A DNA stretch of 32,000 bases from contig NC_008312.1 of the NCBI RefSeq assembly GCF_000014265.1, forward strand, positions 3,840,001-3,872,000, given 5' to 3'. Of this stretch, positions 4,558 through 31,175 are shown in pieces (positions within the stretch are counted from its first letter, which is position 1; every line of letters begins with the position of its first letter). Below the pieces are notes generated by a model that saw only the letters and a list, made by a program, of their open reading frames with translations, was not told the origin of the DNA and ran no database searches. A program made the translations under genes and the position numbers. The stretch comes from Trichodesmium erythraeum IMS101 (GTDB taxonomy: Bacteria > Cyanobacteriota > Cyanobacteriia > Cyanobacteriales > Microcoleaceae).

Positions 4558-4798
4558 TCTCAAAAGTAAGCAGTTGAATTGAGGCTACAACTTGAAGTTG
4601 AGATATTAGAAAAAAAGTTAACTAACAGAAAATTGGCAAAGCTAAAATGTAGCTACCGATTAGATTTGCCATAACTGAGTCTTTTCAGAGCTGTTCCCAT
4701 CTCGATAATGAGAATAAACTACAACCAGATTTAGTTTGGCGACAACAGCGCTATGTTTTTTATTGGTAAGTTTTAATAATATCAAAGGTAAAATAATT

Positions 4799-7700
4799 AT
4801 GCTTGAGTCTTTTGCAATAGTAGCCAGTGGACAATTAGTAGGTTTTCTCGCTAAAGAAGTTCTGGGAAAATTGGCTAAAGAAGCACTTGAAGATTATGTT
4901 AAAGATTTTTTTAAGCAATGTATTACTGATTTTAAAGATAGGATAAGCAATACCAAAAAAAAGCATTTAGAAAAAGCTACTGCAGAAGCTCTGAAAGAAT
5001 TTTTAGAATTAGTACAGCAAGAGTTAGAAGATGCAGATTTAGAGGAAAATCAGTTACAAGAATATAATCAACCTTTGGAACAGTTTCTCAAAAATAAGTT
5101 AGTTAGAGAAACTTTGGGGAGTGCTTTTGATAATAATAGAAAAATTGTAGATACTAAGATATTAGCTAATATTGCTAAAGACATTGTTCCAGATTTGCCA
5201 CCTAATTTTGACTGGCAAAGAGTCGCAAGAAGATATGGCAAAAAAGTTAAAAATATTAGGAATAATTATGATGAATTACGGAAAATATTAGATTCAGAAA
5301 ACCTCGCTCAAATAGCAAATCAAAATTATAAAATTACACCAGAATTTGACCTCAGAAAATATCAAGAAGGTATCCAAGAACAATATGGAAAACTCAAATT
5401 AGAAAGTTTAGATACCAGTGGTTATGGTTATAATGAACTGAAATTATGGGGAATGTTTATTCCTCAAAATGTTCGAGAATCTCAAGAATTTAGGCCTCAA
5501 TTATATGAGGTTCCTAAAGAATATCTCCAACAATTAAAAGAGACGGGGCAGTTAGAGGCAGAATTTTCTCTAGAACAATTGGAAACTGTCCGACGCAGAT
5601 ATTTAGAACAGCCGGCTCGCTCGGTTTTAGAACTAATAGAAAATACCAACTATAAATATTTAGTTATTCTGGGAGACCCTGGTTCTGGCAAGTCTACCTT
5701 ATTACAATATATCGCTTTGGAATGGGCAGAATTACCTCTGAAAGATTTGCCTTTAAAACCAATTCCTCTATTAATTGAACTACGGACTTATGTGAGAAAT
5801 CATGAGACTAATAAATGCCAAAGTTTTCTAGATTTTCTGGAAAAAGGTAGCGGTTTAAATTGCCATTTTCCTCAAAAAGAACTTCATGCAAAACTACAAA
5901 ATGGTGATGCTATTGTGATGTTTGATGGGTTGGATGAAGTTTTTGAACCTGCTAAAAGAAAGGAAATAATTACTGATATTCATCGGTTTACAAATGATTA
6001 TAAAAATGTCCGGGTTATTGTTACTTCTAGAGTAATTGGTTATCAGCCACAACAACTCCGGGATGCTGAATTTTATCATTTTATGTTGCAAGATTTGGGG
6101 TCGGAACAAGTTGAGGATTTTATTCAACGTTGGCATGATTTAACTTATCAAGATGAGCGGGAAAAAGAGCGGAAAAGGGAAAGGTTGAAACGGGCAATTA
6201 ATGATTCTTCAGCTATTAAGCAATTGTCGGGAAATCCTTTGTTATTAACTATGATGGCTATTTTAAATCGTCATCAAGAATTACCGAGAGATAGGGCAGA
6301 ACTTTATAATCAAGCTTCTCGGGTTTTATTACAGCAATGGGATATGGAAAGGGCTTTAGTTGATGCTAAGATTGACCCGATAACTATTGACTATAAAGAT
6401 AAGCAAGAAATTTTGCGCCGAGTTGCTGATTTTATGCAACAAAATAAAGAAGGTTTGGCTGGTAATTTGATTGATGAAAGCAGCTTAGAAAGTATTATTA
6501 AAAAGTATCTAAAAAGTGTAGATATTAATGATGTGAGATTTGTGGCTAGGGCGTTGATGGAACAGTTGCGGGTTAGGAATTTTATTTTGTGTTTTGTTGG
6601 GGGTGGATATTATGCTTTTGTGCATCGAACTTTTTTAGAATATTTCTGTGCTTGGAGTTTTGTTTGGCAGTTTACGGTAACACAAACTCTGGGAAAAGAT
6701 GGGTTGATAAATGATGTTTTTGGTGGTCATTGGCGGGATGAAAAATGGCATGAAGTATTACGGTTAATTTCTGGGATGATAGATGCTAAGTTTGTGGGAG
6801 ATATTATTAGTTATTTGATGGAACAAGATGGGGAAGAGGAAAAGTTTCAGAATTTATTTTTGGCGGGCAAGTGTTTGTCTGAAGTTAGGAGTAGTCAGGG
6901 TATTGGTGATGTGGAAACTCGGTTATTAAATAGGTTAAAAGATTTGACTGGGTATGACCTTGGTTATTTTTATGAATCTTATGATGAAGATGATGAAGAT
7001 GCAGAGTTAGTTCGTGAAATTCGTACTCAAGCTGTGGAAATAGTGGCTACATCCTGGAGGGATGACTCTTCAACTTATGCTTGGCTTAAAGAAAGGGTTG
7101 TGTCTGATGAAAGTTCGTTTGTGCGACGTGAAGCCGTCGGACAAATAGCTACTGGTTGGAAACACGAGCCCGGAATTTTAGAATTACTCAAACAAAGGGT
7201 TGTGTCTGATGAAAGTGAGGATGTGCGAGCTGAAGCCCTCCGACAAATAGCTACTGGTTGGAAACACGAGCCCGGAATTTTAGAATTACTCAAACAATGG
7301 GTTGTGTCTGATGAAAGTGAGTCTGTGCGAGCTGAAGCCCTCCGACAAATAGCAACTGGTTGGAAACACGAGCCGGGAATTTTAGAATTACTCAAACAAT
7401 GGGTTGTGTCTGATGAAAGTCAGCTTGTGCGAGGTGAAGCCCTCCGACAAATAGCTACTGGTTGGAAACACGAGCCCGGAATTTTTGAATTACTCAAACA
7501 AAGGGTTGTGTCTGATGAAAGTTGGCTTGTGCGAGGTGTAGCCCTCCGACAAATAGCAACTGGTTGGAAACACGAGCCCGGAATTTTAGAATTACTCAAA
7601 CAATGGGTTGTGTCTGATGAAAGTGAGGATGTGCGAGCTGAAGCCCTCCGACAAATAGCTACTGGTTGGAAACACGAGCCCGGAATTTTAGAATTACTCA

Positions 7701-8818
7701 AACAATGGGTTGTGTCTGATGAAAGTCAGCTTGTGCGACGTGAAGCCGTCCGACAAATAGCTACTGGTTGGAAACACGAGCCCGGAATTTTAGATTTACT
7801 CAAACAAAGGGTTGTGTCTGATGAAAGTTGGCAGGTGCGAACTGAAGCCGTCCGACAAATAGCTACTGGTTGGAAACACGAGCCCGGAATTTTAGAATTA
7901 CTCAAACAAAGGGTTGTGTCTGATGAAGACTTGAATGTGCGAACTGAAGCCGTCCGACAAATAGCTACTGGTTGGAAACACGAGCCCGGAATTTTAGAAT
8001 TACTCAAACAAAGGGTTGTGTCTGATGAAAGTCAGCTTGTGCGAACTGAAGCCGTCGGACAAATAGCTACTGGTTGGAAACACGAGCCCGGAATTTTAGA
8101 ATTACTCAAACAAAGGGTTGTGTCTGATGAAAGTGAGGATGTGCGAGCTGAAGCCCTCCGACAAATAGCAACTGGTTGGAAACACGAGCCCGGAATTTTA
8201 GAATTACTCAAACAAAGGGTTGTGTCTGATGAAAGTGTGCGTGTGCGAACTGAAGCCCTCCGACAAATAGCAACTGGTTGGAAACACGAGCCCGGAATTT
8301 TTGAATTACTCAAACAAAGGGTTGTGTCTGATGAAAGTGAGGATGTGCGAACTGAAGCCCTCCGACAAATAGCAACTGGTTGGAAACACGAGCCCGGAAT
8401 TTTAGAATTACTCAAAGAAAGGGTTGTGTCTGATGAAAGTGAGGATGTGCGACGTGAAGCCCTCCGACAAATAGCTACTGGTTGGAAACACGAGCCCGGA
8501 ATTTTTGAATTACTCAAACAAAGGGTTGTGTCTGATGAAAGTTGGGATGTGCGACGTGAGGCAGTCAAACAAATAGCAACTGGTTGGAAACAGGAGCCCG
8601 GAACTTTTGAAATATTTTATGACAACGCCCTCAACGATCCCTTTGAACGTAAACATGAATTTCAAGACAACCCTCGACAAACAGCACTAGAAGCAATAGT
8701 CAAACAATACCCAGACCATCCCCAAACCCTCCCACTATTACAAGACAGAGCCGAAAACGACCCAGACAAAAAACTACAGAAATGGGCAAAAAGGATATTG
8801 CAGCAATATACAACATAG
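4799..8818 (+). CDS. NACHT-domain STAND NTPase with a helical N-terminal module and 15 C-terminal 34-aa HEAT-like repeats (paralog 1)
   Basis: Walker A GDPGSGKST (5672-5698), Walker B IVMFDGLDEV, then SGNPLLLTMMA and FVHRTFLEYF motifs typical of NACHT. The C-terminus is VRxEAxRQIATGWKHEPGILELLKQRVVSDESxx repeated 15 times. The ORF track starts at TTG 4736. I prefer ATG 4799 because the segment AAAGG(T/AT)AAAATAATTATG is shared with the paralog's start at 10766. Confidence 0.85.
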   Translation: MLESFAIVASGQLVGFLAKEVLGKLAKEALEDYVKDFFKQCITDFKDRISNTKKKHLEKATAEALKEFLELVQQELEDADLEENQLQEYNQPLEQFLKNKLVRETLGSAFDNNRKIVDTKILANIAKDIVPDLPPNFDWQRVARRYGKKVKNIRNNYDELRKILDSENLAQIANQNYKITPEFDLRKYQEGIQEQYGKLKLESLDTSGYGYNELKLWGMFIPQNVRESQEFRPQLYEVPKEYLQQLKETGQLEAEFSLEQLETVRRRYLEQPARSVLELIENTNYKYLVILGDPGSGKSTLLQYIALEWAELPLKDLPLKPIPLLIELRTYVRNHETNKCQSFLDFLEKGSGLNCHFPQKELHAKLQNGDAIVMFDGLDEVFEPAKRKEIITDIHRFTNDYKNVRVIVTSRVIGYQPQQLRDAEFYHFMLQDLGSEQVEDFIQRWHDLTYQDEREKERKRERLKRAINDSSAIKQLSGNPLLLTMMAILNRHQELPRDRAELYNQASRVLLQQWDMERALVDAKIDPITIDYKDKQEILRRVADFMQQNKEGLAGNLIDESSLESIIKKYLKSVDINDVRFVARALMEQLRVRNFILCFVGGGYYAFVHRTFLEYFCAWSFVWQFTVTQTLGKDGLINDVFGGHWRDEKWHEVLRLISGMIDAKFVGDIISYLMEQDGEEEKFQNLFLAGKCLSEVRSSQGIGDVETRLLNRLKDLTGYDLGYFYESYDEDDEDAELVREIRTQAVEIVATSWRDDSSTYAWLKERVVSDESSFVRREAVGQIATGWKHEPGILELLKQRVVSDESEDVRAEALRQIATGWKHEPGILELLKQWVVSDESESVRAEALRQIATGWKHEPGILELLKQWVVSDESQLVRGEALRQIATGWKHEPGIFELLKQRVVSDESWLVRGVALRQIATGWKHEPGILELLKQWVVSDESEDVRAEALRQIATGWKHEPGILELLKQWVVSDESQLVRREAVRQIATGWKHEPGILDLLKQRVVSDESWQVRTEAVRQIATGWKHEPGILELLKQRVVSDEDLNVRTEAVRQIATGWKHEPGILELLKQRVVSDESQLVRTEAVGQIATGWKHEPGILELLKQRVVSDESEDVRAEALRQIATGWKHEPGILELLKQRVVSDESVRVRTEALRQIATGWKHEPGIFELLKQRVVSDESEDVRTEALRQIATGWKHEPGILELLKERVVSDESEDVRREALRQIATGWKHEPGIFELLKQRVVSDESWDVRREAVKQIATGWKQEPGTFEIFYDNALNDPFERKHEFQDNPRQTALEAIVKQYPDHPQTLPLLQDRAENDPDKKLQKWAKRILQQYTT
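7078..8610 (+). repeat. In-frame tandem array, 15 x 102 bp (34-aa HEAT-like units) inside paralog 1
   Basis: The core caaatagc(t/a)actggttggaaacacgagcccggaattttagaattactcaaacaa(a/t)gggttgtgtctgatgaaagt recurs every 102 nt. Differences cluster in a few codons. Confidence 0.95.
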
Positions 8819-9055: not shown

Positions 9056-9985
9056 TTAAAAATCCTCAAATAAATGCAACCAACTCAACAAATCTTCCAA
9101 ATTATTAAAATCTAAAGAGTCTTCCCCTAAATTATCCAAATGTGCAACTGATAAACCCTCAATTTGACTAGTTATTGCCTCCGGAACTTCTCCAAAACGC
9201 TTTTTAAGTTGACGTATTATTAATTGCCCTCTCCCTTTTTGTTCGCCTTTTTGTTCCCCTCTTCGCTCTCCTTGTTGTTCCGCATAAGTTATCCGTCCTC
9301 TTTCATCTTGCATTGCTATTCCTCGACGCTCAACTATGTCTAACTCTTCCGCTGTCATGTTAATTTTATTAGCAATATTTAAAGCCTTTTCTATTTCCGA
9401 AACTTCTCTTAAATTCTCCGGTATCTCATCTAAACGGCTAGCACTTTTGAGAAAATAAATCCACTTATCACTTAAAGTATGTAACTCAGACAAATTTTTC
9501 TTAAACTTGGGTAATTCTACAAAAAATAGTTGTAATTCTTGTTCCAGAAACTTAAATTTTTTAGTCTCTTGTTGAAAGACAAACTTATTAATTATATCCT
9601 CATTATTTTCAAACAAAATAAAGTCTGTAATTGTTACCCCTATAGCTGGATTCAGCAAGAGATAATCTTCTCCTGTTTCTAATTGATTTGCATAAGCTTT
9701 AGCTAGGTTATAAGCTACTCGTTTATTAAAACCAGTCATTCTAGCAACCTGCATTTCAATCACTACAATAGAACCATCTACTAAAACAGCTTTGATATCT
9801 AAATATGTATCTTTTAAACTCAGCAATTGACCAGGATTAAAAGGATTAGCAATTGTCAAAGACTGAATAATTTTTTTCCCCCCATAAATTATGGCATTGA
9901 GAAAGCTAATCAAGATATCTTGACTTTGTTGCGAACCGAAGATTTTTTTAAAAGCATAATCTATTTTAGGACTAACAAATTTCAT
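9056..9985 (-). CDS. Rpn-family recombination-promoting nuclease / putative transposase (PD-(D/E)XK fold, DUF4351-like C-terminus)
   Basis: The N-terminus MKFVSPKIDYAFKKIFGSQQSQDILISFLNAI and the core DIKAVLVDGSIVVIEMQV are characteristic of this family. A low-complexity GERRGEQKGEQKG linker follows, then a LIIRQLKKRFGEVPE tail. Confidence 0.8.
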   Translation of the reverse strand: MKFVSPKIDYAFKKIFGSQQSQDILISFLNAIIYGGKKIIQSLTIANPFNPGQLLSLKDTYLDIKAVLVDGSIVVIEMQVARMTGFNKRVAYNLAKAYANQLETGEDYLLLNPAIGVTITDFILFENNEDIINKFVFQQETKKFKFLEQELQLFFVELPKFKKNLSELHTLSDKWIYFLKSASRLDEIPENLREVSEIEKALNIANKINMTAEELDIVERRGIAMQDERGRITYAEQQGERRGEQKGEQKGRGQLIIRQLKKRFGEVPEAITSQIEGLSVAHLDNLGEDSLDFNNLEDLLSWLHLFEDF

Positions 9986-10765: not shown

Positions 10766-13700
10766 ATGATTGAATGGTTAGTTGCTTGGGGAAGTAGTGA
10801 AGCGGTTAAATTTATTGCTCAGGAAGTTGTTGGAAAGTTAGGGAAGGGTGCTGTTGAAGATTATGTTAAGGATTTTTTGAAGCAAAACATCTCTAATGCT
10901 GTTGCCAGAATAGCAAATGGAGAACCTTTAAAAAAAGCTACTAAACAAGCAATTAAAGATTTTGAGAATTTGGGATATAAAGAGTTAAAAAATACTGATT
11001 TGAGTGAAAGTAAATTAAAGGAATATGATAAATATTTCAAGTCTTTTATTCAAGAGGGGTCTGTTTTAGAGGTTTTAATTAGTGCCTTCGATAATGATGT
11101 GAAAATTTTAGATATTAATAAATTGGCTACTGCCTGGAACAAAATAAATCCACCTTTACCAGATAACTTTGACTGGGATTTTTTGGCAAAGCAACATCAG
11201 AGAAGTGTTAAAGATATTATCCGGAGTTTCCCAGAATTACGGATAATATTAGATTCTAAAAACCTCGATCAAATAGCAAATCAAAATTATAAAATTACAC
11301 CAGAATTTGACCTCAGAAAATATCAAGAAGGTATCCAAGAACAATATGGAAATCTCAAACTAGAAAGTTTAGATACCAGTGGTTATGGTTATAATGAACT
11401 GAAATTATGGGGAATGTTTATTCCTCAAAATGTTCGAGAATCTCAAGAATTTAGGCCTCAATTATATGAGGTTCCTAAAGAATATCTCCAACAATTAAAA
11501 GAGACGGGGCAGTTAGAGGCAGAATTTTCTCCAGAACAATTGGAAACTGTCCGACGCAGATATTTAGAACAGCCGGTTCGCTCGGTTTTAGAACTAATAG
11601 AAAATACCAACTATAAATATTTAGTTATTCTGGGAGACCCTGGTTCTGGCAAGTCTACCTTATTACAATATATCGCTTTGGAATGGGCAGAATTACCTCT
11701 GAAAGATTTGCCTTTAAAACCAATTCCTCTATTAATTGAACTACGGACTTATGTGAGAAATCATGAGACTAATAACTGCCAAAATTTTCTAGATTTTCTC
11801 GAAAAAGGTAGCGGTTTAAATTGCCATTTTCCTCAAAAAGAACTTCATGCAAAATTACAAAATGGTGATGCTATTGTGATGTTTGATGGATTAGATGAAG
11901 TTTTTGAACCTGCTAAAAGAAAAGAAATAATTACTGATATTCATCGGTTTACAAATGATTATAAAAATGTCCGGGTTATTGTTACTTCTAGAGTAATTGG
12001 TTATCAGCCACAACAACTCCGGGATGCTGAATTTTATCATTTTATGTTGCAAGATTTGGGGTCGGAACAAGTTGATAATTTTATTCAACTTTGGCATGAT
12101 TTAACTTATCAAGATGAGGGGGAAAAAGAGCGGAAAAGGGAAAGGTTGAAACGGGCAATTAATGATTCTTCAGCTATTAAGCAGTTGTCGGGAAATCCTT
12201 TGTTATTAACTATGATGGCTATTTTAAATCGTCATCAAGAATTACCGAGAGATAGGGCAGAACTTTATAATCAAGCTTCTCGGGTTTTATTACAGCAATG
12301 GGATATGGAAAGGGCTTTAGTTGATGCTAAGATTGACCCGATAACTATTGACTATAAAGATAAGCAAGAAATTTTGCGCCGAGTTGCTGATTTTATGCAA
12401 CAAAATAAAGAGGGTTTGGCTGGTAATTTGATTGATGAAAGCAGCTTAGAAAATATTATTAAAGATTATCTAAAAAGTGTAGATATTAATGATGTGAGAG
12501 TTGTGGCTAGGGCGTTGATGGAACAGTTGCGGGTTCGTAATTTTATTTTGTGTTTTGTTGGGGGTGGATATTATGCTTTTGTGCATCGAACTTTTTTAGA
12601 ATATTTCTGTGCTTGGAGTTTTGTTTGGCAGTTTACGGTAACACAAACTCTGGGAAAAGATGGGTTGATAAATGATGTTTTTGGTGGTCATTGGCGGGAT
12701 GAAAAATGGCATGAGGTATTACGGTTAATTTCTGGGATGATAGATGCTAAGTTTGTGGGAGATATTATTAGTTATTTGATGGAACAAGATGGGGAAGAGG
12801 AAAAGTTTCAGAATTTATTTTTGGCGGGCAAGTGTTTGTCTGAAGTTAGGAGTAGTCAGGGTATTGATGATGTGGAAAATCGGTTATTAAATAGGTTAAA
12901 AGAGTTGACTGGGTATGACCTTGGTTATTTTTATCAACCATTGTACTTAAGCTTTAGTTCTATTTCTAGGGAAATTTATAGGAAAAATTTAGACTTAGTT
13001 CGTGAAATTCGTACTCAAGCTGTGGAAATAGTGGCTACAACCTGGAGGGACGACCCTTCAACTTATGCTTGGCTCAAACAAAGGGTTGTGTCTGATGAAG
13101 ACTCGGATGTGCGACGTGAAGCCGTCCGACAAATAGCTACTGGTTGGAAACACGAGCCGGGAATTTTAGAATTACTCAAACAATGGGTTGTGTCTGATGA
13201 AGACTCGGATGTGCGACGTGAAGCCCTCCGACAAATAGCTACTGGTTGGAAACACGAGCCCGGAATTTTAGAATTACTCAAACAATGGGTTGTGTCTGAT
13301 GAAAGTGAGTATGTGCGAACTGAAGCCGTCCGACAAATAGCTACTGGTTGGAAACACGAGCCCGGAATTTTAGAATTACTCAAACAATGGGTTGTGTCTG
13401 ATGAAAGTGAGGATGTGCGAGGTGAAGCCCTCGGACAAATAGCAACTGGTTGGAAACACGAGCCGGGAATTTTAGAATTACTCAAACAATGGGTTGTGTC
13501 TGATGAAAATTGGCATGTGCGAACTGAAGCCCTCCGACAAATAGTAACTGGTTGGAAACACGAGCCCGGAATTTTAGAACTACTCAAACAATGGGTTGTG
13601 TCTGATGAAAGTGAGCTTGTGCGAGGTGAAGCCCTCCGACAAATAGCTACTGGTTGGAAACACGAGCCGGGAATTTTAGATTTACTCAAACAAAGGGTTG

Positions 13701-14815
13701 TGTCTGATGAAAGTGAGTATGTGCGAACTGAAGCCGTCGGACAAATAGCTACTGGTTGGAAACACGAGCCCGGAATTTTAGAATTACTCAAACAAAGGGT
13801 TGTGTCTGATGATAGTGAGTCTGTGCGAGCTGAAGCCCTCCGACAAATAGCTACTGGTTGGAAACACGAGCCCGGAATTTTAGAATTACTCAAACAAAGG
13901 GTTGTGTCTGATGATAGTGAGTCTGTGCGAGCTGAAGCCCTCCGACAAATAGCTACTGGTTGGAAACACGAGCCCGGAATTTTAGAATTACTCAAACAAA
14001 GGGTTGTGTCTGATGATAGTGAGTCTGTGCGAGCTGAAGCCCTCCGACAAATAGCTACTGGTTGGAAACACGAGCCCGGAATTTTAGAATTACTCAAACA
14101 AAGGGTTGTGTCTGATGATAGTGAGGATGTGCGACGTGAAGCCGTCCGACAAATAGCTACTGGTTGGAAACACGAGCCCGGAATTTTAGAATTACTCAAA
14201 CAATGGGTTGTGTCTGATGAAAGTGAGTATGTGCGACGTGAAGCCCTCGGACAAATAGCTACTGGTTGGAAACACGAGCCCGGAATTTTAGAATTACTCA
14301 AACAATGGGTTGTGTCTGATGAAAGTGAGTATGTGCGACGTGAAGCCCTCCGACAAATAGCTACTGGTTGGAAACACGAGCCCGGAATTTTTGAATTACT
14401 CAAACAAAGGGTTGTGTCTCATGAAAGTTCGTCTGTGCGAACTGAAGCCGTCCGACAAATAGCTACTGGTTGGAAACACGAGCCCGGAATTTTAGAATTA
14501 CTCAAACAAAAGGTTGTGTCTGATGAAAGTTGGGATGTGCGACGTGAGGCAGTCAAACAAATAGCAACTGGTTGGAAACAGGAGCCGGGAACTTTTGAAA
14601 TATTTTATGACAACGCCCTCAACGATCCCTTTGAACGTATACATGAAATTCAAGACAACCCTCGACAAACAGCACTAGAAGCAATAGTCAAACAATACCC
14701 AGACCATCCCCAAACCCTCCCACTATTACAAGACAGAGCCGAAAACGACCCAGACGAACAACTACAGAATTGGGCAAAAAGGAAATTGCGATCGCTAAAA
14801 AATAACCAGCGCTAG
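10766..14815 (+). CDS. NACHT-domain STAND NTPase with a helical N-terminal module and 15 C-terminal 34-aa HEAT-like repeats (paralog 2)
   Basis: 1349-aa ORF. From about residue 170 onward it is nearly identical to paralog 1 and has the same Walker A/B and NACHT motifs. The first ~170 aa are only distantly similar. Confidence 0.88.
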   Translation: MIEWLVAWGSSEAVKFIAQEVVGKLGKGAVEDYVKDFLKQNISNAVARIANGEPLKKATKQAIKDFENLGYKELKNTDLSESKLKEYDKYFKSFIQEGSVLEVLISAFDNDVKILDINKLATAWNKINPPLPDNFDWDFLAKQHQRSVKDIIRSFPELRIILDSKNLDQIANQNYKITPEFDLRKYQEGIQEQYGNLKLESLDTSGYGYNELKLWGMFIPQNVRESQEFRPQLYEVPKEYLQQLKETGQLEAEFSPEQLETVRRRYLEQPVRSVLELIENTNYKYLVILGDPGSGKSTLLQYIALEWAELPLKDLPLKPIPLLIELRTYVRNHETNNCQNFLDFLEKGSGLNCHFPQKELHAKLQNGDAIVMFDGLDEVFEPAKRKEIITDIHRFTNDYKNVRVIVTSRVIGYQPQQLRDAEFYHFMLQDLGSEQVDNFIQLWHDLTYQDEGEKERKRERLKRAINDSSAIKQLSGNPLLLTMMAILNRHQELPRDRAELYNQASRVLLQQWDMERALVDAKIDPITIDYKDKQEILRRVADFMQQNKEGLAGNLIDESSLENIIKDYLKSVDINDVRVVARALMEQLRVRNFILCFVGGGYYAFVHRTFLEYFCAWSFVWQFTVTQTLGKDGLINDVFGGHWRDEKWHEVLRLISGMIDAKFVGDIISYLMEQDGEEEKFQNLFLAGKCLSEVRSSQGIDDVENRLLNRLKELTGYDLGYFYQPLYLSFSSISREIYRKNLDLVREIRTQAVEIVATTWRDDPSTYAWLKQRVVSDEDSDVRREAVRQIATGWKHEPGILELLKQWVVSDEDSDVRREALRQIATGWKHEPGILELLKQWVVSDESEYVRTEAVRQIATGWKHEPGILELLKQWVVSDESEDVRGEALGQIATGWKHEPGILELLKQWVVSDENWHVRTEALRQIVTGWKHEPGILELLKQWVVSDESELVRGEALRQIATGWKHEPGILDLLKQRVVSDESEYVRTEAVGQIATGWKHEPGILELLKQRVVSDDSESVRAEALRQIATGWKHEPGILELLKQRVVSDDSESVRAEALRQIATGWKHEPGILELLKQRVVSDDSESVRAEALRQIATGWKHEPGILELLKQRVVSDDSEDVRREAVRQIATGWKHEPGILELLKQWVVSDESEYVRREALGQIATGWKHEPGILELLKQWVVSDESEYVRREALRQIATGWKHEPGIFELLKQRVVSHESSSVRTEAVRQIATGWKHEPGILELLKQKVVSDESWDVRREAVKQIATGWKQEPGTFEIFYDNALNDPFERIHEIQDNPRQTALEAIVKQYPDHPQTLPLLQDRAENDPDEQLQNWAKRKLRSLKNNQR
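13065..14598 (+). repeat. In-frame tandem array, 15 x 102 bp (34-aa HEAT-like units) inside paralog 2
   Basis: Same 102-nt unit as in paralog 1. Units at 13797-13898, 13899-14000 and 14001-14102 are identical base for base. Confidence 0.95.
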
Positions 14816-19189: not shown

Positions 19190-19936
19190 CTAGCGCAACG
19201 CAAAATCAGAACGCAACCTCAATTCTAAATCATCCTCTGGATAAATAACAACTACCTCCCCTTCTTCCCGACCCAATAACACTCCACCTAAAGCACCTAA
19301 ACCCGCACCTATTAATATCCTTTCCGTAGCCAGAACCCGATCTCCAAGAACCGCAGATAATAAAGCAGCAGCACCACCACCCACAGCAGCACCCTTCAAG
19401 ATATCCCCAGCGCTTGCACCTTTTGTTATTTCTTCAGTCTCAGTAATTACTTGAGAAACAGCATTAATAGGAAACCTACGGCGATCGCCAATAATTAATT
19501 GTTCAGCAAAAAACTGAGTCCCATTTGAAACAGGTCGTAGTTCACCTTCTATCTCACCACCAAAAGGTATAACCACTCTTCCTTGAGCATCCCTAATATC
19601 TTTAGTCACCCTCAACCTTAACCTCATCGACTCATCTGGAGTTATCACAACCTTTTCTGCTTCCTTATATTCTATAGGAATAAGCTTTCCTGCTCGTATC
19701 CTTGCTACAGACAACGGCCCTCTTGGGTTACCTGGATATCGTCTGTGTTGGTAGCCTGGATATCGTCTTTGTTGGTAGCCTGGGTATTGTCTTTGTTGGT
19801 AGCCTGGGTATTGTCTTGGTCCGTTAAATTGAGCCATAGCTTGTTTTGACATTAAACCAGGAGTTGCTGTAGCTAATGTCATGCCTAAAGTCAACAACAA
19901 AGACGTTCCAGAATGCCAGTTTTTTGAATTAACCAT
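19190..19936 (-). CDS. Hypothetical exported protein with (Q/R)YPGYQQR tandem repeats and a C-terminal glycine-zipper segment
   Basis: Signal-peptide-like N-terminus (SLLLTLGMTLATATPGLMSKQAMAQ). Four 8-aa (24-nt) repeats. C-terminal GAAVGGGAAALLSAVLG...GAGLGALGGVLLG. I recognise no family. Confidence 0.6.
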   Translation of the reverse strand: MVNSKNWHSGTSLLLTLGMTLATATPGLMSKQAMAQFNGPRQYPGYQQRQYPGYQQRRYPGYQHRRYPGNPRGPLSVARIRAGKLIPIEYKEAEKVVITPDESMRLRLRVTKDIRDAQGRVVIPFGGEIEGELRPVSNGTQFFAEQLIIGDRRRFPINAVSQVITETEEITKGASAGDILKGAAVGGGAAALLSAVLGDRVLATERILIGAGLGALGGVLLGREEGEVVVIYPEDDLELRLRSDFALR

Positions 19937-26499: not shown

Positions 26500-28455
26500 A
26501 TGAAAACAGAAGTCAGAAACATTAATACAGAAATATTAGAACATAATTTACAACGAAACTGGCAAGATTTAAAAAAATCTAATGATGTTTGTGAAATTAA
26601 ATGCGACTTAAAGGTAGGAACATTATTGGTTATTTTTCAACATCCAGCAAATGTAGTGATAGATAAGCAAAAAACAATTGCAGAGTTAAAAACTCTAGTT
26701 CAAAAACAGGAGTTAGAATATATAGAAAAAGTAGGTATTTGCTTGAATATAATAGGTCATACATATCCTTATGCTTATCATTCATTTTTTACCAAGGATA
26801 CCTCAGAAGAATCTATGTTCACTTTTCTGCCCAAATGGGTAGATAGAAATATAGATTCTGAAATAAAAATTACACCAGAATTACTAGATTCCTTAGATAA
26901 TCCATTTAGTTTAAAAGATTTAGAAGCAATATCTATGAGACTAGAATCTGAGGGTATGTCTGATACAAATCCTCATCTAATCAATCAGCATATCTCTCAG
27001 GATAAAAGTCAAAATTCAGAAATTAAAATCACTTCAAAAATACTGGATGATTTAGATAATCCTTTTGATATGGAAGGATTAGATTTATCCCCAAAAAAAA
27101 TTAATAGAAAAACTAGGAATTATGTAGAAAAAACATCGCCTATAATCAAAGAATCAACTATTAATTTAGCTGCCTTTTCTCAAGTAGAATTGATTAGCGC
27201 TAGTTTAAGTTTAGCAATTTTAATAGGCTGTTTTTTTGCAATAACTCAACCCTGTGTGATTGGAAAATGTATGATAATATCAACGGCAAAAGAATTAAAT
27301 CAACAATCACTAGAAACAATTAAAAATGTCAAAAATTCTTTGGCTCCAAAGTGGGCACAAGAAAATTTAGAAACAGCAATTAAAAATTTAGAAAAGATTC
27401 CATTTTGGTCAATACATTACTTAGAATCACAAAATTTAAAGTCTACTTACAAAACAGAAAATGAGCATTTGGAAACAATTAGACAAGCTTTGCGTAATGG
27501 TGCACAAGCAGCTCAAAAAAGCAAAGGTTTACCACTACCAATAGAAGAATGGATAGAAATTCAATCACTTTGGCAAGAAGCGATCGCTCTATTAGAAAAA
27601 GTACCAGAAGATAGTAGAGCTTATCCTTTTGCTAAAAATAAACTACAGCAATATCGCAAGTATTTAGTTGCTATTAAAGGAAGATTAACTAGTGAAGAAG
27701 AAGCTAATCAAAAGTTAATAGCGGCGAAAAAATTAGCTCAGTTAGCAGAGACCAGAGAGGTAATAGCTCAATTTCCTGAAAGCTGGAAAAGTGTACATTC
27801 AAACTGGAAAGATGCCTTAGATAAAGTATCTAAGATTCCTCAACAAACAACTGCTTATTTAAAAGCCAAAAATTTACTTTCTCAGTATAAACAAAAACTT
27901 CAGCAAGCAGAGGAACGTAGAATCGTAGAAGAAATTGGTCAAGAGGCTTATAATCAAGCTATTAGTTACTCTAAACAAGCTGAAGTGTTTGAGGCAAAAG
28001 ATAATTGGAGAGATGCTGCAAAATATTGGCAAAAAGCTCTAAATTATGCTGAAGACATACCAACTAATTCAAGTTATTTTATTTCAGCAAAACCTCTGAT
28101 TAAATCTTATGATACTTTGCTAAAAGTAGCACAATCAAACCAAAGGTTATTAGATACTTTAGCAAAAGCTAATCAGGACTTAAATAAGACTTGCAAGGGA
28201 AAACAAAAAATTTGTCAATATAGTGTTACTAAGGATTTAATTACTGTACGTTTGACTTTTGATTATGTAGATAAAATCAAAAAAACAGCTAAAGCAGTGA
28301 AAAATAGTAAAGACAAAAAGAGTCGTACTGAACTCGAAAAACATTTGAAAACTTTAGAGGTTGCTTTAAAGGCTATTAGTAATAATTCTAAGATTCCTTT
28401 AGAACTTTATAACCCACAAGGTTTAAAAATTGCTTCTCATTTTCCCAATAGTTAA
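26500..28455 (+). CDS. Hypothetical membrane-anchored protein with internal repeats
   Basis: 651-aa ORF. It has a duplicated SEIKIT(P/S)xxLDxLDNPF segment and one hydrophobic helix (LISASLSLAILIGCFFAITQP). A helical C-terminal part carries four W..A...L..(I/V)P......Y..(A/S)..L modules. I recognise no family. Confidence 0.6.
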   Translation: MKTEVRNINTEILEHNLQRNWQDLKKSNDVCEIKCDLKVGTLLVIFQHPANVVIDKQKTIAELKTLVQKQELEYIEKVGICLNIIGHTYPYAYHSFFTKDTSEESMFTFLPKWVDRNIDSEIKITPELLDSLDNPFSLKDLEAISMRLESEGMSDTNPHLINQHISQDKSQNSEIKITSKILDDLDNPFDMEGLDLSPKKINRKTRNYVEKTSPIIKESTINLAAFSQVELISASLSLAILIGCFFAITQPCVIGKCMIISTAKELNQQSLETIKNVKNSLAPKWAQENLETAIKNLEKIPFWSIHYLESQNLKSTYKTENEHLETIRQALRNGAQAAQKSKGLPLPIEEWIEIQSLWQEAIALLEKVPEDSRAYPFAKNKLQQYRKYLVAIKGRLTSEEEANQKLIAAKKLAQLAETREVIAQFPESWKSVHSNWKDALDKVSKIPQQTTAYLKAKNLLSQYKQKLQQAEERRIVEEIGQEAYNQAISYSKQAEVFEAKDNWRDAAKYWQKALNYAEDIPTNSSYFISAKPLIKSYDTLLKVAQSNQRLLDTLAKANQDLNKTCKGKQKICQYSVTKDLITVRLTFDYVDKIKKTAKAVKNSKDKKSRTELEKHLKTLEVALKAISNNSKIPLELYNPQGLKIASHFPNS

Positions 28456-28985
28456 AGGAAGAAAAATATCTGAGTATAGTTTTTATAGTGCTTCTCAAAT
28501 TTAGGTTGTGGAGTCTGTATTTAACTGAGATATAAGGTTGATAATTTCCGAGCCAAACTTATTACTATTTAAACCTATATTTTACACTATAAATGTAGCA
28601 TGAAAATATAATTCAAAAGTCATGCATTCAAGGCACCCTCTTGATCTTCTCCACACCCCCATGGGGTAAGTTACCTCAATTTGAAAAAAATTATAGTGGT
28701 CAATAGGATTTAAGGATTCACTAAGTATTTGTACTTAATATATTCCTAAAAACTTTACTCCTGATCAAGGTAAATGAAAATAATTTTTATAGTATAAATA
28801 TTTAACCAAGTTACAGATTTTATACTGATTTTTATGTTACAAATTGAGTTGCAGAATGTGAGTTTCAAAATTGAAAACTCCAGAGTTTTAGTTAGGGATA
28901 CTGGCTCTAGACCACTATGAGTCAGAGAATTCCTGAGCACTCAACTTCATTTTCTGAAGCTCAAAAAAAACTGCGGTATTTTGCC

Positions 28986-29014
28986 TTGCATTCACACAAA
29001 AATTTTGATATCAT
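28986..29014 (+). promoter_or_regulatory. Promoter-like element in repeat unit 1 (TTGCAT-N17-TGaTATCAT)
   Basis: -35-like TTGCAT at 28986-28991, a 17-nt spacer, and an extended -10 TG-a-TATCAT at 29006-29014. Motif match only. Confidence 0.3.
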
Positions 29015-29286
29015 AAAATTACAGTGGAGTAATTCGGGCATTTGCATGATTTTTTCTTCAACCCACTTTTAAGCAACTTAAGAGATATTACTAAAAAACT
29101 TACTAAAAAACTTACTAAAAAAATAGAATAGGTGCAAAAGCCGAACTAACCTGGGTATTGCCAATTAAGAACTTCTGTGGATATATAGGTAATAAGTGAT
29201 AAATCATGATTCAATTATGAGTCAGAGAATTCCTAAGCACTCAACTTCATTTTCTGAAGCTCAAAAAAAAACCGCGGCATTTTCCC

Positions 29287-29315
29287 TTGCATTCACACAA
29301 AAATTTTGATATCAT
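29287..29315 (+). promoter_or_regulatory. Promoter-like element in repeat unit 2
   Basis: Same TTGCAT-N17-TGaTATCAT motif, conserved exactly. Confidence 0.3.
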
Positions 29316-29576
29316 AAAATTAGAGTGGAGTAACTCGGGCATTTGCATGATTTTTTCTTCAACCCACTTTTAAGCAACTTAAGAGATATTACTAAAAAAC
29401 TTACTAAAAAAATAGAATAGGTGCAAAAACCGAACTAACCTGGGTATTGCCAATTAAGAACTTCTGAATGGCTATATAGGTAATAAGTGATAAATCATGA
29501 TTCAATTATGAGTCAGAGAATTCCTGAGCACTCACCTTCATTTTCTGAAGCTTAAAAAAAACCGCGGCATTTTCCC

Positions 29577-29605
29577 TTGCATTCACACAAAAATTTTGAT
29601 ATCAT
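29577..29605 (+). promoter_or_regulatory. Promoter-like element in repeat unit 3
   Basis: Same TTGCAT-N17-TGaTATCAT motif, conserved exactly. Confidence 0.3.
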
Positions 29606-29799
29606 AAAATTAGAGTGGAGTAACTCGGGCATTTGCATGATTTTTTCTTCAACCCACTTTTAAGCAACTTAAGAGATATTACTAAAAAACTTACTAAAAA
29701 AATAGAATAGGTGCAAAAACCGAACTAACCTGGGTATTGCCAATTAAGAACTTCTGAATGGCTATATAGGTAATAAGTGATAAATCATGATTCAATTAT

Positions 29800-31175
29800 C
29801 GGGACTTTAGTGAAAAAATAGTAAAAAAAAGGGTATAATGTATACCTGATATGTATTTTACGTTAATTACTGGCCTGGGAAAAGTTTGATGAAAGAAACA
29901 ACTTCAGTGGCCATGCCCTCTTGTTTCCATCGATGGTGCGATCGCTTTAACAATGTCTTTAAAACAAAAGCCCAAAAAACAGGGTTTAGGGAATATATAG
30001 GAGGATTACTCTTGAGAAAGCGATCGAAAAAACTTGTCTCAAATTGCCAACAACACTGTAGGTCACACGTACCACAAATTACGGCATTTTCTAGTTCGAG
30101 CAAATTGGTCTGTAGATGCTGTGAATGAGCGTCGTCTTCAAGTAATGTGGGAACGTCGCCAAACAAAACCTTCTCGATCCTATTGCTTTAATTATAGACG
30201 ATTCAGGCCACAGAAAAAGTGGTAATTTTACTGCAGGAGTAGGGCGGCAATATATAGGAGAAATAGGAAAAACAGATAATGGTGTAGTCGTGGTGACAAC
30301 TCATCTTTATGATGGAGTTAAAAGTCTACCTTTAGACATAGCTTTGTATCAGAAAGCTGATTCTTTTCCAAAAGGAAAAAAAGACCCAGAATTTGTCAAG
30401 AAACCAGACGAGTGCAATGTCTCTAGTAGATCAATGTTTGTCCAGAGGACACCAACCAGAAATTGTGTTAATTGAAATTTGGCTATGGTAACAATACATC
30501 ATTCTTAAATCAACTAGAGAAAAGAAGTTTAACTTATATAGGAGGATTAGCTAAAAATCGAAAAGTCATCATTAAAAAACAAGATGACATTAAAGAGGAA
30601 ATTAGATTAGACAAGCTGGCAGAAAGTATACCTCAGAAAGCTTTCAACTTAGTTCAACTAAGTACAAAAAATGCTAGAGAAGTTTGGGTAGCTACATTAG
30701 AAGTAGAAATATCTAGGATGTCAGGTCAAAAAACTATAGCTATCGTTATGAATGCTAAAAGTTTTTCTGAGGCCACTGATATTAACTATTATATCACTAA
30801 TAGAGAAGACAAATATGTAACTCCTGAGTGGATATATTCTACTTATTCTCAAAGAAATTGGGTGGAAGTTTTCTACAGGGAAGCCAAAGGATGGTTAGGA
30901 TTAAGAGAATATCAAGTCAGAGATAAAATCAGCCTTAAAAGGCATTTTATTTTAGTATTTTGTGCTTATACATTTATTATCTGGCATCAGTTAACAGGAG
31001 GTATAAGAAGGCGTTGGGCTAACAAACCATTAAATACGTTTACTGATACTTTAGAAGCATTTCGTACCGCAATATCTTATCGTTTTGTTGAGTGGTTAGA
31101 TGAAAACATCGACGTATTTACCGCTCATAAAGAGAGTTTAGGGTTTGTTTGGGCTTGAAATTTGCTAAAGTCCCG
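29800..31175 (+). mobile_element. IS701-family-like insertion sequence (1376 bp) with a decayed transposase
   Basis: Terminal inverted repeats CGGGACTTTAG at 29800-29810 and, reverse-complemented, at 31165-31175. Flanking 4-bp direct repeat TTAT at 29796-29799 and 31176-31179. Removing the element and one TTAT restores the normal unit junction caattatgagtc. Confidence 0.85.
29886..31158 (+). pseudogene. IS701-like DDE transposase, disrupted by at least three to four frameshifts
   Basis: The reading continues across four frames: ...FREYIGGLL / SQIANNTVGHTYHKLRHFLVRANWSVDAVNERRLQVM / ALIIDDSGHRKSGNFTAGVGRQYIGEIGKTDNGVVVVTTHLYDG / SLVDQCLSRGHQPEIVLI / GYGNNTSFLNQLEKRSLTYIGGLAKNRKV...NWVEVFYREAKGWLGLREYQVR. 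These motifs are typical of IS701/IS4-like DDE enzymes. Confidence 0.8.

Follow-up and report, generated by a model that had tools for sequence, protein, structure and literature searches.

Near-identical HEAT-like repeat arrays with focused codon variation in two NLR-like genes of Trichodesmium erythraeum IMS101

We analysed a stretch of 32,000 nucleotides of the cyanobacterium Trichodesmium erythraeum IMS101 (contig NC_008312.1, positions 3,840,001 to 3,872,000; hereafter the window), in which two paralogous genes, A and B, each carry a C-terminal array of 15 tandem 102-bp units. Most of the unit is nearly constant, and its variation is focused on three of the 34 codons. We consider it probable, at roughly 75%, that the two genes encode receptors resembling NOD-like receptors (NLRs), that their HEAT solenoid displays a stripe of diversifying residues, and that the arrays are homogenised and reshuffled by unequal crossing-over and gene conversion while being subject to diversifying selection. 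A first-pass annotation made from the letters alone had pointed in this direction; the observation on which it was built is confirmed, and its interpretation was largely right. We found no description of these Trichodesmium genes in the literature.

The arrays and the distribution of their variation

The arrays and the genes that contain them are placed as follows.

7082..8611, + strand: array A, 15 units of 102 bp (34 amino acids), within gene A
13070..14599, + strand: array B, 15 units of 102 bp, within gene B; units B08-B10 (13784-14089) are identical
4799..8818, + strand: gene A, NNH2-NACHT-HEAT NLR-like protein (Pfam NNH2 4e-59, NACHT 3e-11, HEAT_2 6e-51)
10766..14815, + strand: gene B, paralogous NNH2-NACHT-HEAT protein (Pfam)

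Tandem Repeats Finder delimited array A at 7088-8611 (period 102, 14.9 copies, 93% matches, 0% indels, score 2479) and array B at 13073-14599 (period 102, 15.0 copies, 93% matches, no indels, score 2324), both in frame inside long open reading frames (ORFs) of the + strand at 4736-8818 and 10766-14815. Throughout, we use the unit register LLKQRVVSDESxxVRxEALRQIATGWKHEPGILE, with unit starts at 7082+102k in A and 13070+102k in B; for a unit starting at s, the hypervariable codons occupy s+33..s+38 (positions 12-13) and s+45..s+47 (position 16). The HEAT-like signature SDESxxVRxEA, which belongs to the motif class D-x-[DNS]-x-x-V-R-x-x-A, runs through the 30 units with few exceptions.

Amino-acid entropy over the 30 units has three peaks, at positions 12 (1.96 bits, 6 residues), 13 (2.60 bits, 9 residues) and 16 (1.93 bits, residues R/A/G/T); the first two immediately precede an invariant Val-Arg and the third follows it. 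Together with the Tandem Repeats Finder output, this per-position entropy bears out the earlier description of two 15-unit arrays varying at about three codons, and the 14 di-residues that had been listed before the VR motif, as well as R, A, G or T after it, correspond exactly to the 30-unit alignment. The dimorphic sites that had been named were found at positions 5 (AGG/TGG, R/W), 19 (L/V), 20 (R/G, with K in the last unit) and 33 (L/F); positions 10 (E/D) and 11 (S/D/N) vary slightly, and the amino acid is invariant at 15 of the 34 positions. One statement went too far: a quoted 39-mer said to be invariant in all 30 units is exact in 16 and has two mismatches or fewer in 28 (zero matches are expected by chance). 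It contains two synonymous dimorphisms (GCT/GCA in 8 units, CCC/CCG in 5), and the two terminal units diverge more than the others.

Identity among the 26 internal units is 93.2% at the nucleotide level and 86.4% at the amino-acid level; with the terminal units included, amino-acid identity over all 30 is 84.4%. By the criterion of Dyrka 2014, repeats have high internal conservation (HIC) when their identity exceeds about 85% across 100 residues or more, and the internal units, with 442 residues per array, lie above both limits. Among them, codons 12, 13 and 16, which are 9% of the codons, hold 51% of the pairwise nucleotide differences, and the four dimorphic codons hold a further 21%. Despite this homogeneity, 28 of the 30 units are distinct in sequence.

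Nei-Gojobori counting across all pairs of units puts the ratio of nonsynonymous to synonymous differences (pN/pS) at 39-50 for codons 12, 13 and 16 and at 0.20 for the remaining 25 codons, so that the raised per-site ratio anticipated by the first-pass annotation is present in this unit-versus-unit form. It is 12.8 at the four dimorphic codons (all 30 units; zero synonymous differences there among internal units) and about 0.5 at codons 10-11. The hypervariable codons read NNG, NNT and NNT, with up to four states at each of the first two bases and a third base that has changed once. Because so many first- and second-base states accompany a constant third base, the pattern is hard to reconcile with neutrality or a local mutation hot spot.

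Two further observations concern the arrays. Their GC content is 0.46, compared with 0.31-0.35 in the remainder of these genes (at third codon positions, 0.33 vs 0.19-0.26), an excess in which amino-acid composition and biased gene conversion may each have a part. Long antisense ORFs lie across them (7075-7395, 8032-8568 and 13063-14403, all on the - strand); as one antisense frame of the 102-bp unit has no stop codon, we regard these as by-products.

Both genes have the same tripartite layout in Pfam, with NNH2 followed by NACHT and C-terminal HEAT_2 repeats, all above the Pfam cut-offs. The NACHT family PF05729 scores 43.8 and 40.2 bits in the two genes vs a cut-off of 26.7, the HEAT_2 match of gene B has an E-value of 8e-56, and the Walker A (GDPGSGKST) and Walker B (IVMFDGLDE) motifs are intact in both translations. 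The ORF of gene A opens at TTG 4736; ATG 4799 is its likely start because it is aligned with the start of gene B. The parts of the two genes are listed below.

4871..5416, + strand: gene A NNH2 (NACHT N-terminal helical domain 2), presumed effector or adaptor (PF22734, residues 46-227)
5657..6139, + strand: gene A NACHT NTPase core (PF05729, residues 308-468)
6980..7081, + strand: gene A degenerate N-cap HEAT unit (…AELVREIRTQAVEIVATSWRDDSSTYA), found by the unit hidden Markov model (HMM) as a 16th, divergent unit
8612..8815, + strand: gene A C-terminal cap, formed by the helices that follow the array; nucleotide identity with gene B about 98%
10838..11377, + strand: gene B NNH2 (PF22734, residues 25-204, 4e-54)
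11618..12097, + strand: gene B NACHT NTPase core (PF05729, residues 285-444; Foldseek NLRC4, NLRP3, NOD2)
12968..13069, + strand: gene B degenerate N-cap HEAT unit (translation; unit HMM)
14600..14812, + strand: gene B C-terminal cap (translation; paralogue identity profile)

Fold, recombination and relatives

An AlphaFold model of the repeat domain (gene A residues 723-1360, 30-sequence alignment) consists of regular helix pairs with a mean confidence (pLDDT) of 90.5. In the model, helix A of each unit spans positions 32 to 8, a loop 9-11, helix B 12-25 and a second loop 26-31, and the N-cap unit begins with a helix at model residues 31-51, after a variable linker of low confidence (pLDDT below 50, model residues 20-29). 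The best Foldseek matches of the model are HEAT solenoids such as transportin (karyopherins), CAND1, condensin and mTOR. By sequence, the repeat domain as a single query found no match in the PDB, a three-unit profile found weak matches to YibA and condensin only, and the PDB entries of the designed alphaRep proteins were found only by a consensus-unit query. For gene B, the best PDB matches of a model of residues 1-768 (pLDDT 73.7) are NLRC4, NLRP3, NOD2 and NAIP5 (Foldseek E 2e-12 to 1e-8); in this model pLDDT stays below 50 over residues 1-51 and is about 66-83 in the helices of residues 53-154, and NNH2 had no meaningful match in the PDB by sequence. As a side observation, the linker from the NACHT-associated helical region to the first HEAT unit is wholly different between the paralogues (A 6912-6988, B 12873-12973; model pLDDT below 50), with the acidic YESYDEDDEDAE in gene A and YQPLYLSFSSISREIYRKNLD in gene B.

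The first-pass annotation had proposed that the hypervariable residues line one face of the HEAT solenoid, and here the support is indirect. If 100 degrees are counted for each residue of the modelled helix B, positions 12, 16, 20 and 13 share an arc of 100 degrees, and the hydrophobic V14, A18 and I22 lie opposite. The unit motif SDESxxVRxEA also aligns with the alphaRep consensus DEDxxVRxxAAxALGxIG of PDB chains, which equates unit positions 12, 13, 16, 17, 20 and 24 with alphaRep positions 18, 19, 22, 23, 26 and 30. These are the randomised alphaRep positions, which form the concave face that contacts targets in crystal structures (PMC3754942). Of the equivalent positions, 12, 13 and 16 are used strongly and 20 weakly, while 17 (E) and 24 (T) are nearly fixed; the natural hypervariable positions 12, 13, 16 and 20 have alphaRep positions 18, 19, 22 and 26, on the concave face, as their counterparts. 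Helix assignment, periodicity and motif alignment thus indirectly place the hypervariable residues on one face of the second helix, in a location predicted to match the concave binding face of alphaRep. The alphaRep binders share the repeat class, the motif DEDxxVRxxA and a variable repeat number with arrays A and B, but have a synthetic unit of 31 residues instead of a natural one of 34 and are not linked to an NTPase. The L/V and L/F dimorphisms at 19 and 33 are conservative substitutions at hydrophobic positions, which, judging from the pattern of hydrophobic residues, probably lie in the core and outside the recognition surface, and the R/W dimorphism at position 5 falls in helix A.

The arrays bear several marks of recombination, consistent with the earlier suggestion that units are shuffled by unequal recombination or gene conversion. 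All four gametes are present for nearly all pairs of polymorphic sites, even for sites as close together as those of codons 13/16 and 19/20 (3-9 bp). The identical units B08, B09 and B10 yield a 284-bp exact self-match, which points to a recent unequal exchange. Units differ on average at 6.8 sites within A, 7.0 within B and 7.06 between A and B, and units of the same rank in A and B are no closer than others, with positional orthology retained only by the first and last units. The units of both arrays hence behave as one pool from which positional orthology has been erased. The adjoining NACHT DNA is far more similar, with 25 differing sites over 1600 bp (1.6%; 11 synonymous, 14 not) vs about 7% in the arrays. 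On a larger scale the paralogues form a mosaic: 4799-5311 and 10766-11272, the NNH2 part, have about 65% DNA identity, 5312-8790 and 11273-14780 have about 98%, ending just before the stop codons, and beyond that identity is about 55%. Such a mosaic suggests either gene conversion over a 3.5-kb tract or an exchange of the N-terminal domain.

The NNH2-NACHT-HEAT family comprises 2953 proteins at E <=1e-10 among the candidates scored, mostly from filamentous cyanobacteria (Trichodesmium, Okeania, Dapis, Hydrocoleum, Nostoc, Calothrix, Tolypothrix, Oscillatoria), with several copies per genome. Kibby et al., who defined the NNH domains, counted HEAT as an 'antigen-receptor-type' C-terminus in bacterial NACHT proteins and described expansions of NACHT paralogues in cyanobacteria, which the multi-copy expansion seen here matches. 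Equivalent positions vary in homologues from Okeania, Nostocales, Planctomycetota and Acidobacteriota. When entropy within each protein is averaged across the 42 homologues that have 8 or more units, it peaks at positions 5, 10-13 and 16. A further 23 arrays have a pN/pS of 0.37/0.30 for positions 10-13 and 16 vs 0.094/0.19 elsewhere. The same entropy peaks are present in a planctomycetotal homologue of 20 units (222-kb contig) and an acidobacteriotal one of 15 units (1.76-Mb contig), both at 41% identity; these non-cyanobacterial homologues suggest either horizontal spread or an ancient origin of the NNH2-NACHT-HEAT design. The di-residues SD, WD, WN, SS, EY and ED recur across genera, indicating a restricted alphabet of accepted residues. 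Each homologous array has its own consensus unit, which is a mark of concerted evolution.

Unit number ranges from 5 to 28 over the 29 arrays listed, a few of them on truncated contigs. Two sets of syntenic Okeania loci, with housekeeping neighbours in common and 77-91% identity before the array, have 28/10/13/21 and 10/11/21/11 units, although these come from short-read metagenome-assembled genomes (MAGs) of different species and the counts may be mis-assembled. The four-gamete violations, the identical units B08-B10, the common pool of A and B units and these differing numbers are the grounds on which we retain the shuffling hypothesis.

Short-read assemblies systematically truncate these genes. 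The closest family loci (88-94% identity) lie on Trichodesmium MAG contigs that break off at the start of the repeats; Trichodesmium MAG copies of the family end at contig edges, mostly in the NACHT region or in the first one to three repeat units, and one JGI relative appears collapsed to 1.5 units. The database protein nearest to gene B, a partial NACHT protein of a T. erythraeum MAG, is 99% identical; a look-up of the exact gene B product found no record. A metagenome scan with a 38-nt unit pattern gave no match, and a looser 20-nt pattern found 12 short contigs. Neither these scans nor the relatives yielded an informative allele of the window's own locus.

The receptor interpretation and its alternatives

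On the architecture, the fold, the distribution of variation, the selection signature and the signs of recombination reported above, we infer a model in which surface exposure, ligand, oligomerisation and output take the following form. Genes A and B would encode bacterial NLR-like receptors that arose by tandem duplication and sense ligands through their arrays, with the 34-residue helix-loop-helix units stacked as an alpha-solenoid. Residues 12, 13, 16 and, less markedly, 20 would lie on successive turns of the second helix and form a continuous stripe across the units, serving as the recognition surface. Unequal crossing-over and short-tract gene conversion, both within arrays and between paralogues, may keep the DNA of the units near-identical, while selection would favour amino-acid change at the stripe positions, and recombination would reshuffle units and alter their number, allowing binding specificity to change fast. 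By analogy with Avs and bNACHT antiphage proteins and with fungal HET-E/NWD, binding of a non-self protein would release autoinhibition and let the NACHT domain oligomerise; NNH2 would then deliver the output, by the same analogy probably that an infected cell of the filament stops growing or dies.

The closest precedent is found in the fungal NLRs with HIC repeats (Podospora HET-E/HET-D/NWD, with related ANK and TPR proteins), for which hypervariable, positively selected positions and repeat shuffling are established (PMC4986451). Like genes A and B, these combine NACHT with a near-identical C-terminal array (at least 86% amino-acid identity; PMC4986451, PMC13449251), and three to four positions of each unit carry most of the variation, which in the fungal case is positively selected. 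They also show concerted evolution within and between paralogues and repeat-number polymorphism (PMC4986451, PMC13449251), and a fungal NACHT-HEAT gene with repeat-number polymorphism, Pa_6_7270, has been described (PMC4986451). Genes A and B differ in their bacterial host, in a 34-residue HEAT unit of PBS-lyase type instead of WD40, ANK or TPR, and in an NNH2 N-terminus instead of HET, HeLo or PNP-UDP. The likeness to these fungal repeats, which the first-pass annotation had drawn, is borne out by two NACHT STAND (signal transduction ATPases with numerous domains) NTPases with C-terminal HEAT_2 repeats, few variable codons and a pN/pS of about 40-50.

Among bacterial systems, the bNACHT and Avs STAND sensors have the same order of N-terminal domain, NACHT and C-terminal repeat sensor, and they bind phage proteins. 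None of the tested members is close to genes A and B, for which PADLOC gave weak P-loop matches only, and the characterised sensors, unlike A and B, are not described as homogenised arrays with hypervariable codons. Among bacterial NLRs, those of cyanobacteria and actinobacteria were reported to have WD and TPR repeats of high internal conservation (80-90%) (bioRxiv 10.1101/2020.01.06.895854; Dyrka/Daskalov 2020), and HIC in multicellular bacteria has been proposed to allow rapid diversification (Dyrka/Daskalov 2020; Ament-Velasquez 2026). These bacterial surveys cover WD40, TPR, ANK and LRR and explicitly exclude HEAT, and they are not known to analyse variation site by site in the bacterial arrays.

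Several observations weigh against the receptor interpretation. The mapping of the variable residues to a surface is indirect, and unit-versus-unit pN/pS within one protein is not the classical dN/dS; differences between units could reflect fixed, position-specific contacts. The nearest relative of gene B, the partial protein from the T. erythraeum MAG, ends after two units, both of which equal B01-B02. The repeat-number comparison in Okeania is subject to the limits given above. Arrays A and B have no exact match of at least 120 bp in common, so that no recent large transfer between the paralogues is seen and exchanges would be short-tract or not very recent. Lastly, the 32-kb window contains no recognisable defence genes, with the PADLOC matches already mentioned as the only hits, and no partner gene is conserved over 21 flanked family loci, where we found housekeeping synteny only.

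Some of these points would fit a scaffold with a fixed ligand, in which the solenoid binds one conserved, extended partner, for instance phycobilisome or cytoskeletal, and unit differences are position-specific contacts. The repeats do belong to the PBS-lyase HEAT-like class and have a weak similarity to the phycobilisome-degradation protein NblB, but at 72 bits this is far under the 300-bit NCBIfam equivalog cut-off, and we rejected an NblB identity. The housekeeping neighbours, the two first units identical in another T. erythraeum genome and the di-residues that recur across genera are also compatible with fixed contacts. Positional orthology between A and B has nevertheless been erased despite 98.4% identical flanks, unit number differs two- to three-fold between syntenic orthologues, and the fusion to a NACHT switch together with the multi-copy expansion fits receptors better. 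We therefore consider a fixed-ligand scaffold unlikely.

The pattern might also be a neutral by-product of recent unit amplification, with homogeneity reflecting the youth of the arrays and exposed residues simply tolerating change. The very high nucleotide identity and the three identical units would agree with young arrays, and exposed helix positions are generally the most tolerant. Neutral change would, however, hit synonymous sites too, so that the multiple first- and second-base changes in three codons, the nearly constant third bases and the pN/pS of about 40-50 speak against it. The same positions moreover vary across phyla in arrays with different consensus units, which implies a regime that is old and maintained, and we regard a neutral origin as quite improbable.

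Targeted hypermutation, by a diversity-generating retroelement (DGR) or another directed mutator that writes the variable codons, has the precedent that DGRs diversify STAND sensors in multicellular bacteria and that Trichodesmium is reported to have DGR targets (PMC10907252). The known targets are C-type lectin/FGS folds and not HEAT (PMC10907252), and thirty separate short targets misfit a single pair of template and variable repeat. We found no reverse transcriptase among the ORFs and no template repeat in the 32-kb window, and adenines outside the three hypervariable codons (AAA, CAA, ATA) are invariant. On the evidence of the window we rejected the arrays as DGR targets and see scarcely any room for a directed mutator. 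Equally hard to credit are collapsed or chimeric arrays produced by assembly, as suggested by the short-read MAG homologues routinely cut at the repeat start and by the collapsed-looking JGI relative, since both arrays are in frame without indels and have distinct cap units and intact C-termini, 28 of 30 units are distinct, and the same NNH2-NACHT-HEAT architecture is found on contigs up to 8 Mb.

Transcription activator-like effectors (TALEs) resemble arrays A and B: some 15 near-identical helix-loop-helix units of 34 residues follow one another, and the hypervariable di-residue sits where the loop meets the second helix. A di-residue code like that of TALE or PUF proteins, by which every unit would recognise a single element of a periodic ligand, is unlikely, and less probable than the speculative cassette pool discussed below. 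The position numbers 12-13 coincide only through the register that we chose. TALE-like DNA binding was rejected on the grounds that there is no TAL-effector Pfam match, the units match HEAT_2 and the domain is net acidic. The repeat domains have 89-91 D+E vs 71-74 K+R (net charge about -15 to -20), and E and D are the commonest residues at the variable positions; this acidity, both of the domain and of its variable sites, argues against nucleic-acid binding.

Genomic neighbourhood and significance

Between genes A and B lies the following feature.

9056..9985, - strand: Rpn-family recombination-promoting nuclease / putative transposase (Pfam PDDEXK_2 8e-49 and DUF4351; TIGR01784 160 bits)

It is probably a bystander. 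Among related loci, an Rpn neighbour recurs only in Trichodesmium MAG_R02, where it is upstream of a truncated gene B orthologue. A far more speculative reading would make the arrays, with further paralogues where these exist, a cassette pool whose units are actively reshuffled as the multicellular host grows vegetatively, perhaps with help from the Rpn nuclease, as a somatic repertoire similar to the variable lymphocyte receptors of lampreys. We give this very little weight; if it were true, cells or genome copies of one colony would carry different receptors.

The other neighbours in the window are ordinary, among them an EamA transporter, a GGDEF-EAL protein, a chorismate mutase, an S49 peptidase and an S1-domain protein, and scans of the window with Rfam and for tRNAs gave no match. 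Elsewhere in the window, 28916-29799 contains three copies of a non-coding 290-bp tandem repeat (95% matches), inside which a 12-bp repeat of TTACTAAAAAAC occurs; it has no Rfam match and is followed by a truncated DDE transposase ORF at 30472-31158. A perfect intergenic heptamer repeat, CAATCTC x 8.9, occupies 1550-1611. A 24-bp tandem repeat at 19731-19817 (95% matches over 3.6 copies) would translate as an 8-residue repeat of the 248-aa ORF around it (19190-19936, - strand), which is without Pfam match, and a 651-aa ORF at 26500-28455 is also without Pfam match.

Bacterial NLR-like proteins are now recognised as ancestors or analogues of eukaryotic innate immune receptors. To our knowledge, how their sensors track changing targets is largely unexplored outside DGR-diversified lectin domains. 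What the arrays add is not a new principle but an extension of the 'homogenise and diversify' strategy of fungal NLRs to HEAT-like repeats in cyanobacteria. The truncated relatives are a warning that short-read assemblies lose such genes, and HEAT is worth adding to future HIC surveys. Filamentous cyanobacteria show this regime, and so do Planctomycetota and Acidobacteriota on large MAG contigs. It acts on three to four positions that protein engineers also chose for alphaRep binder libraries, which provides concrete residues for mutation and swaps in the hunt for ligands, for example among cyanophage proteins.

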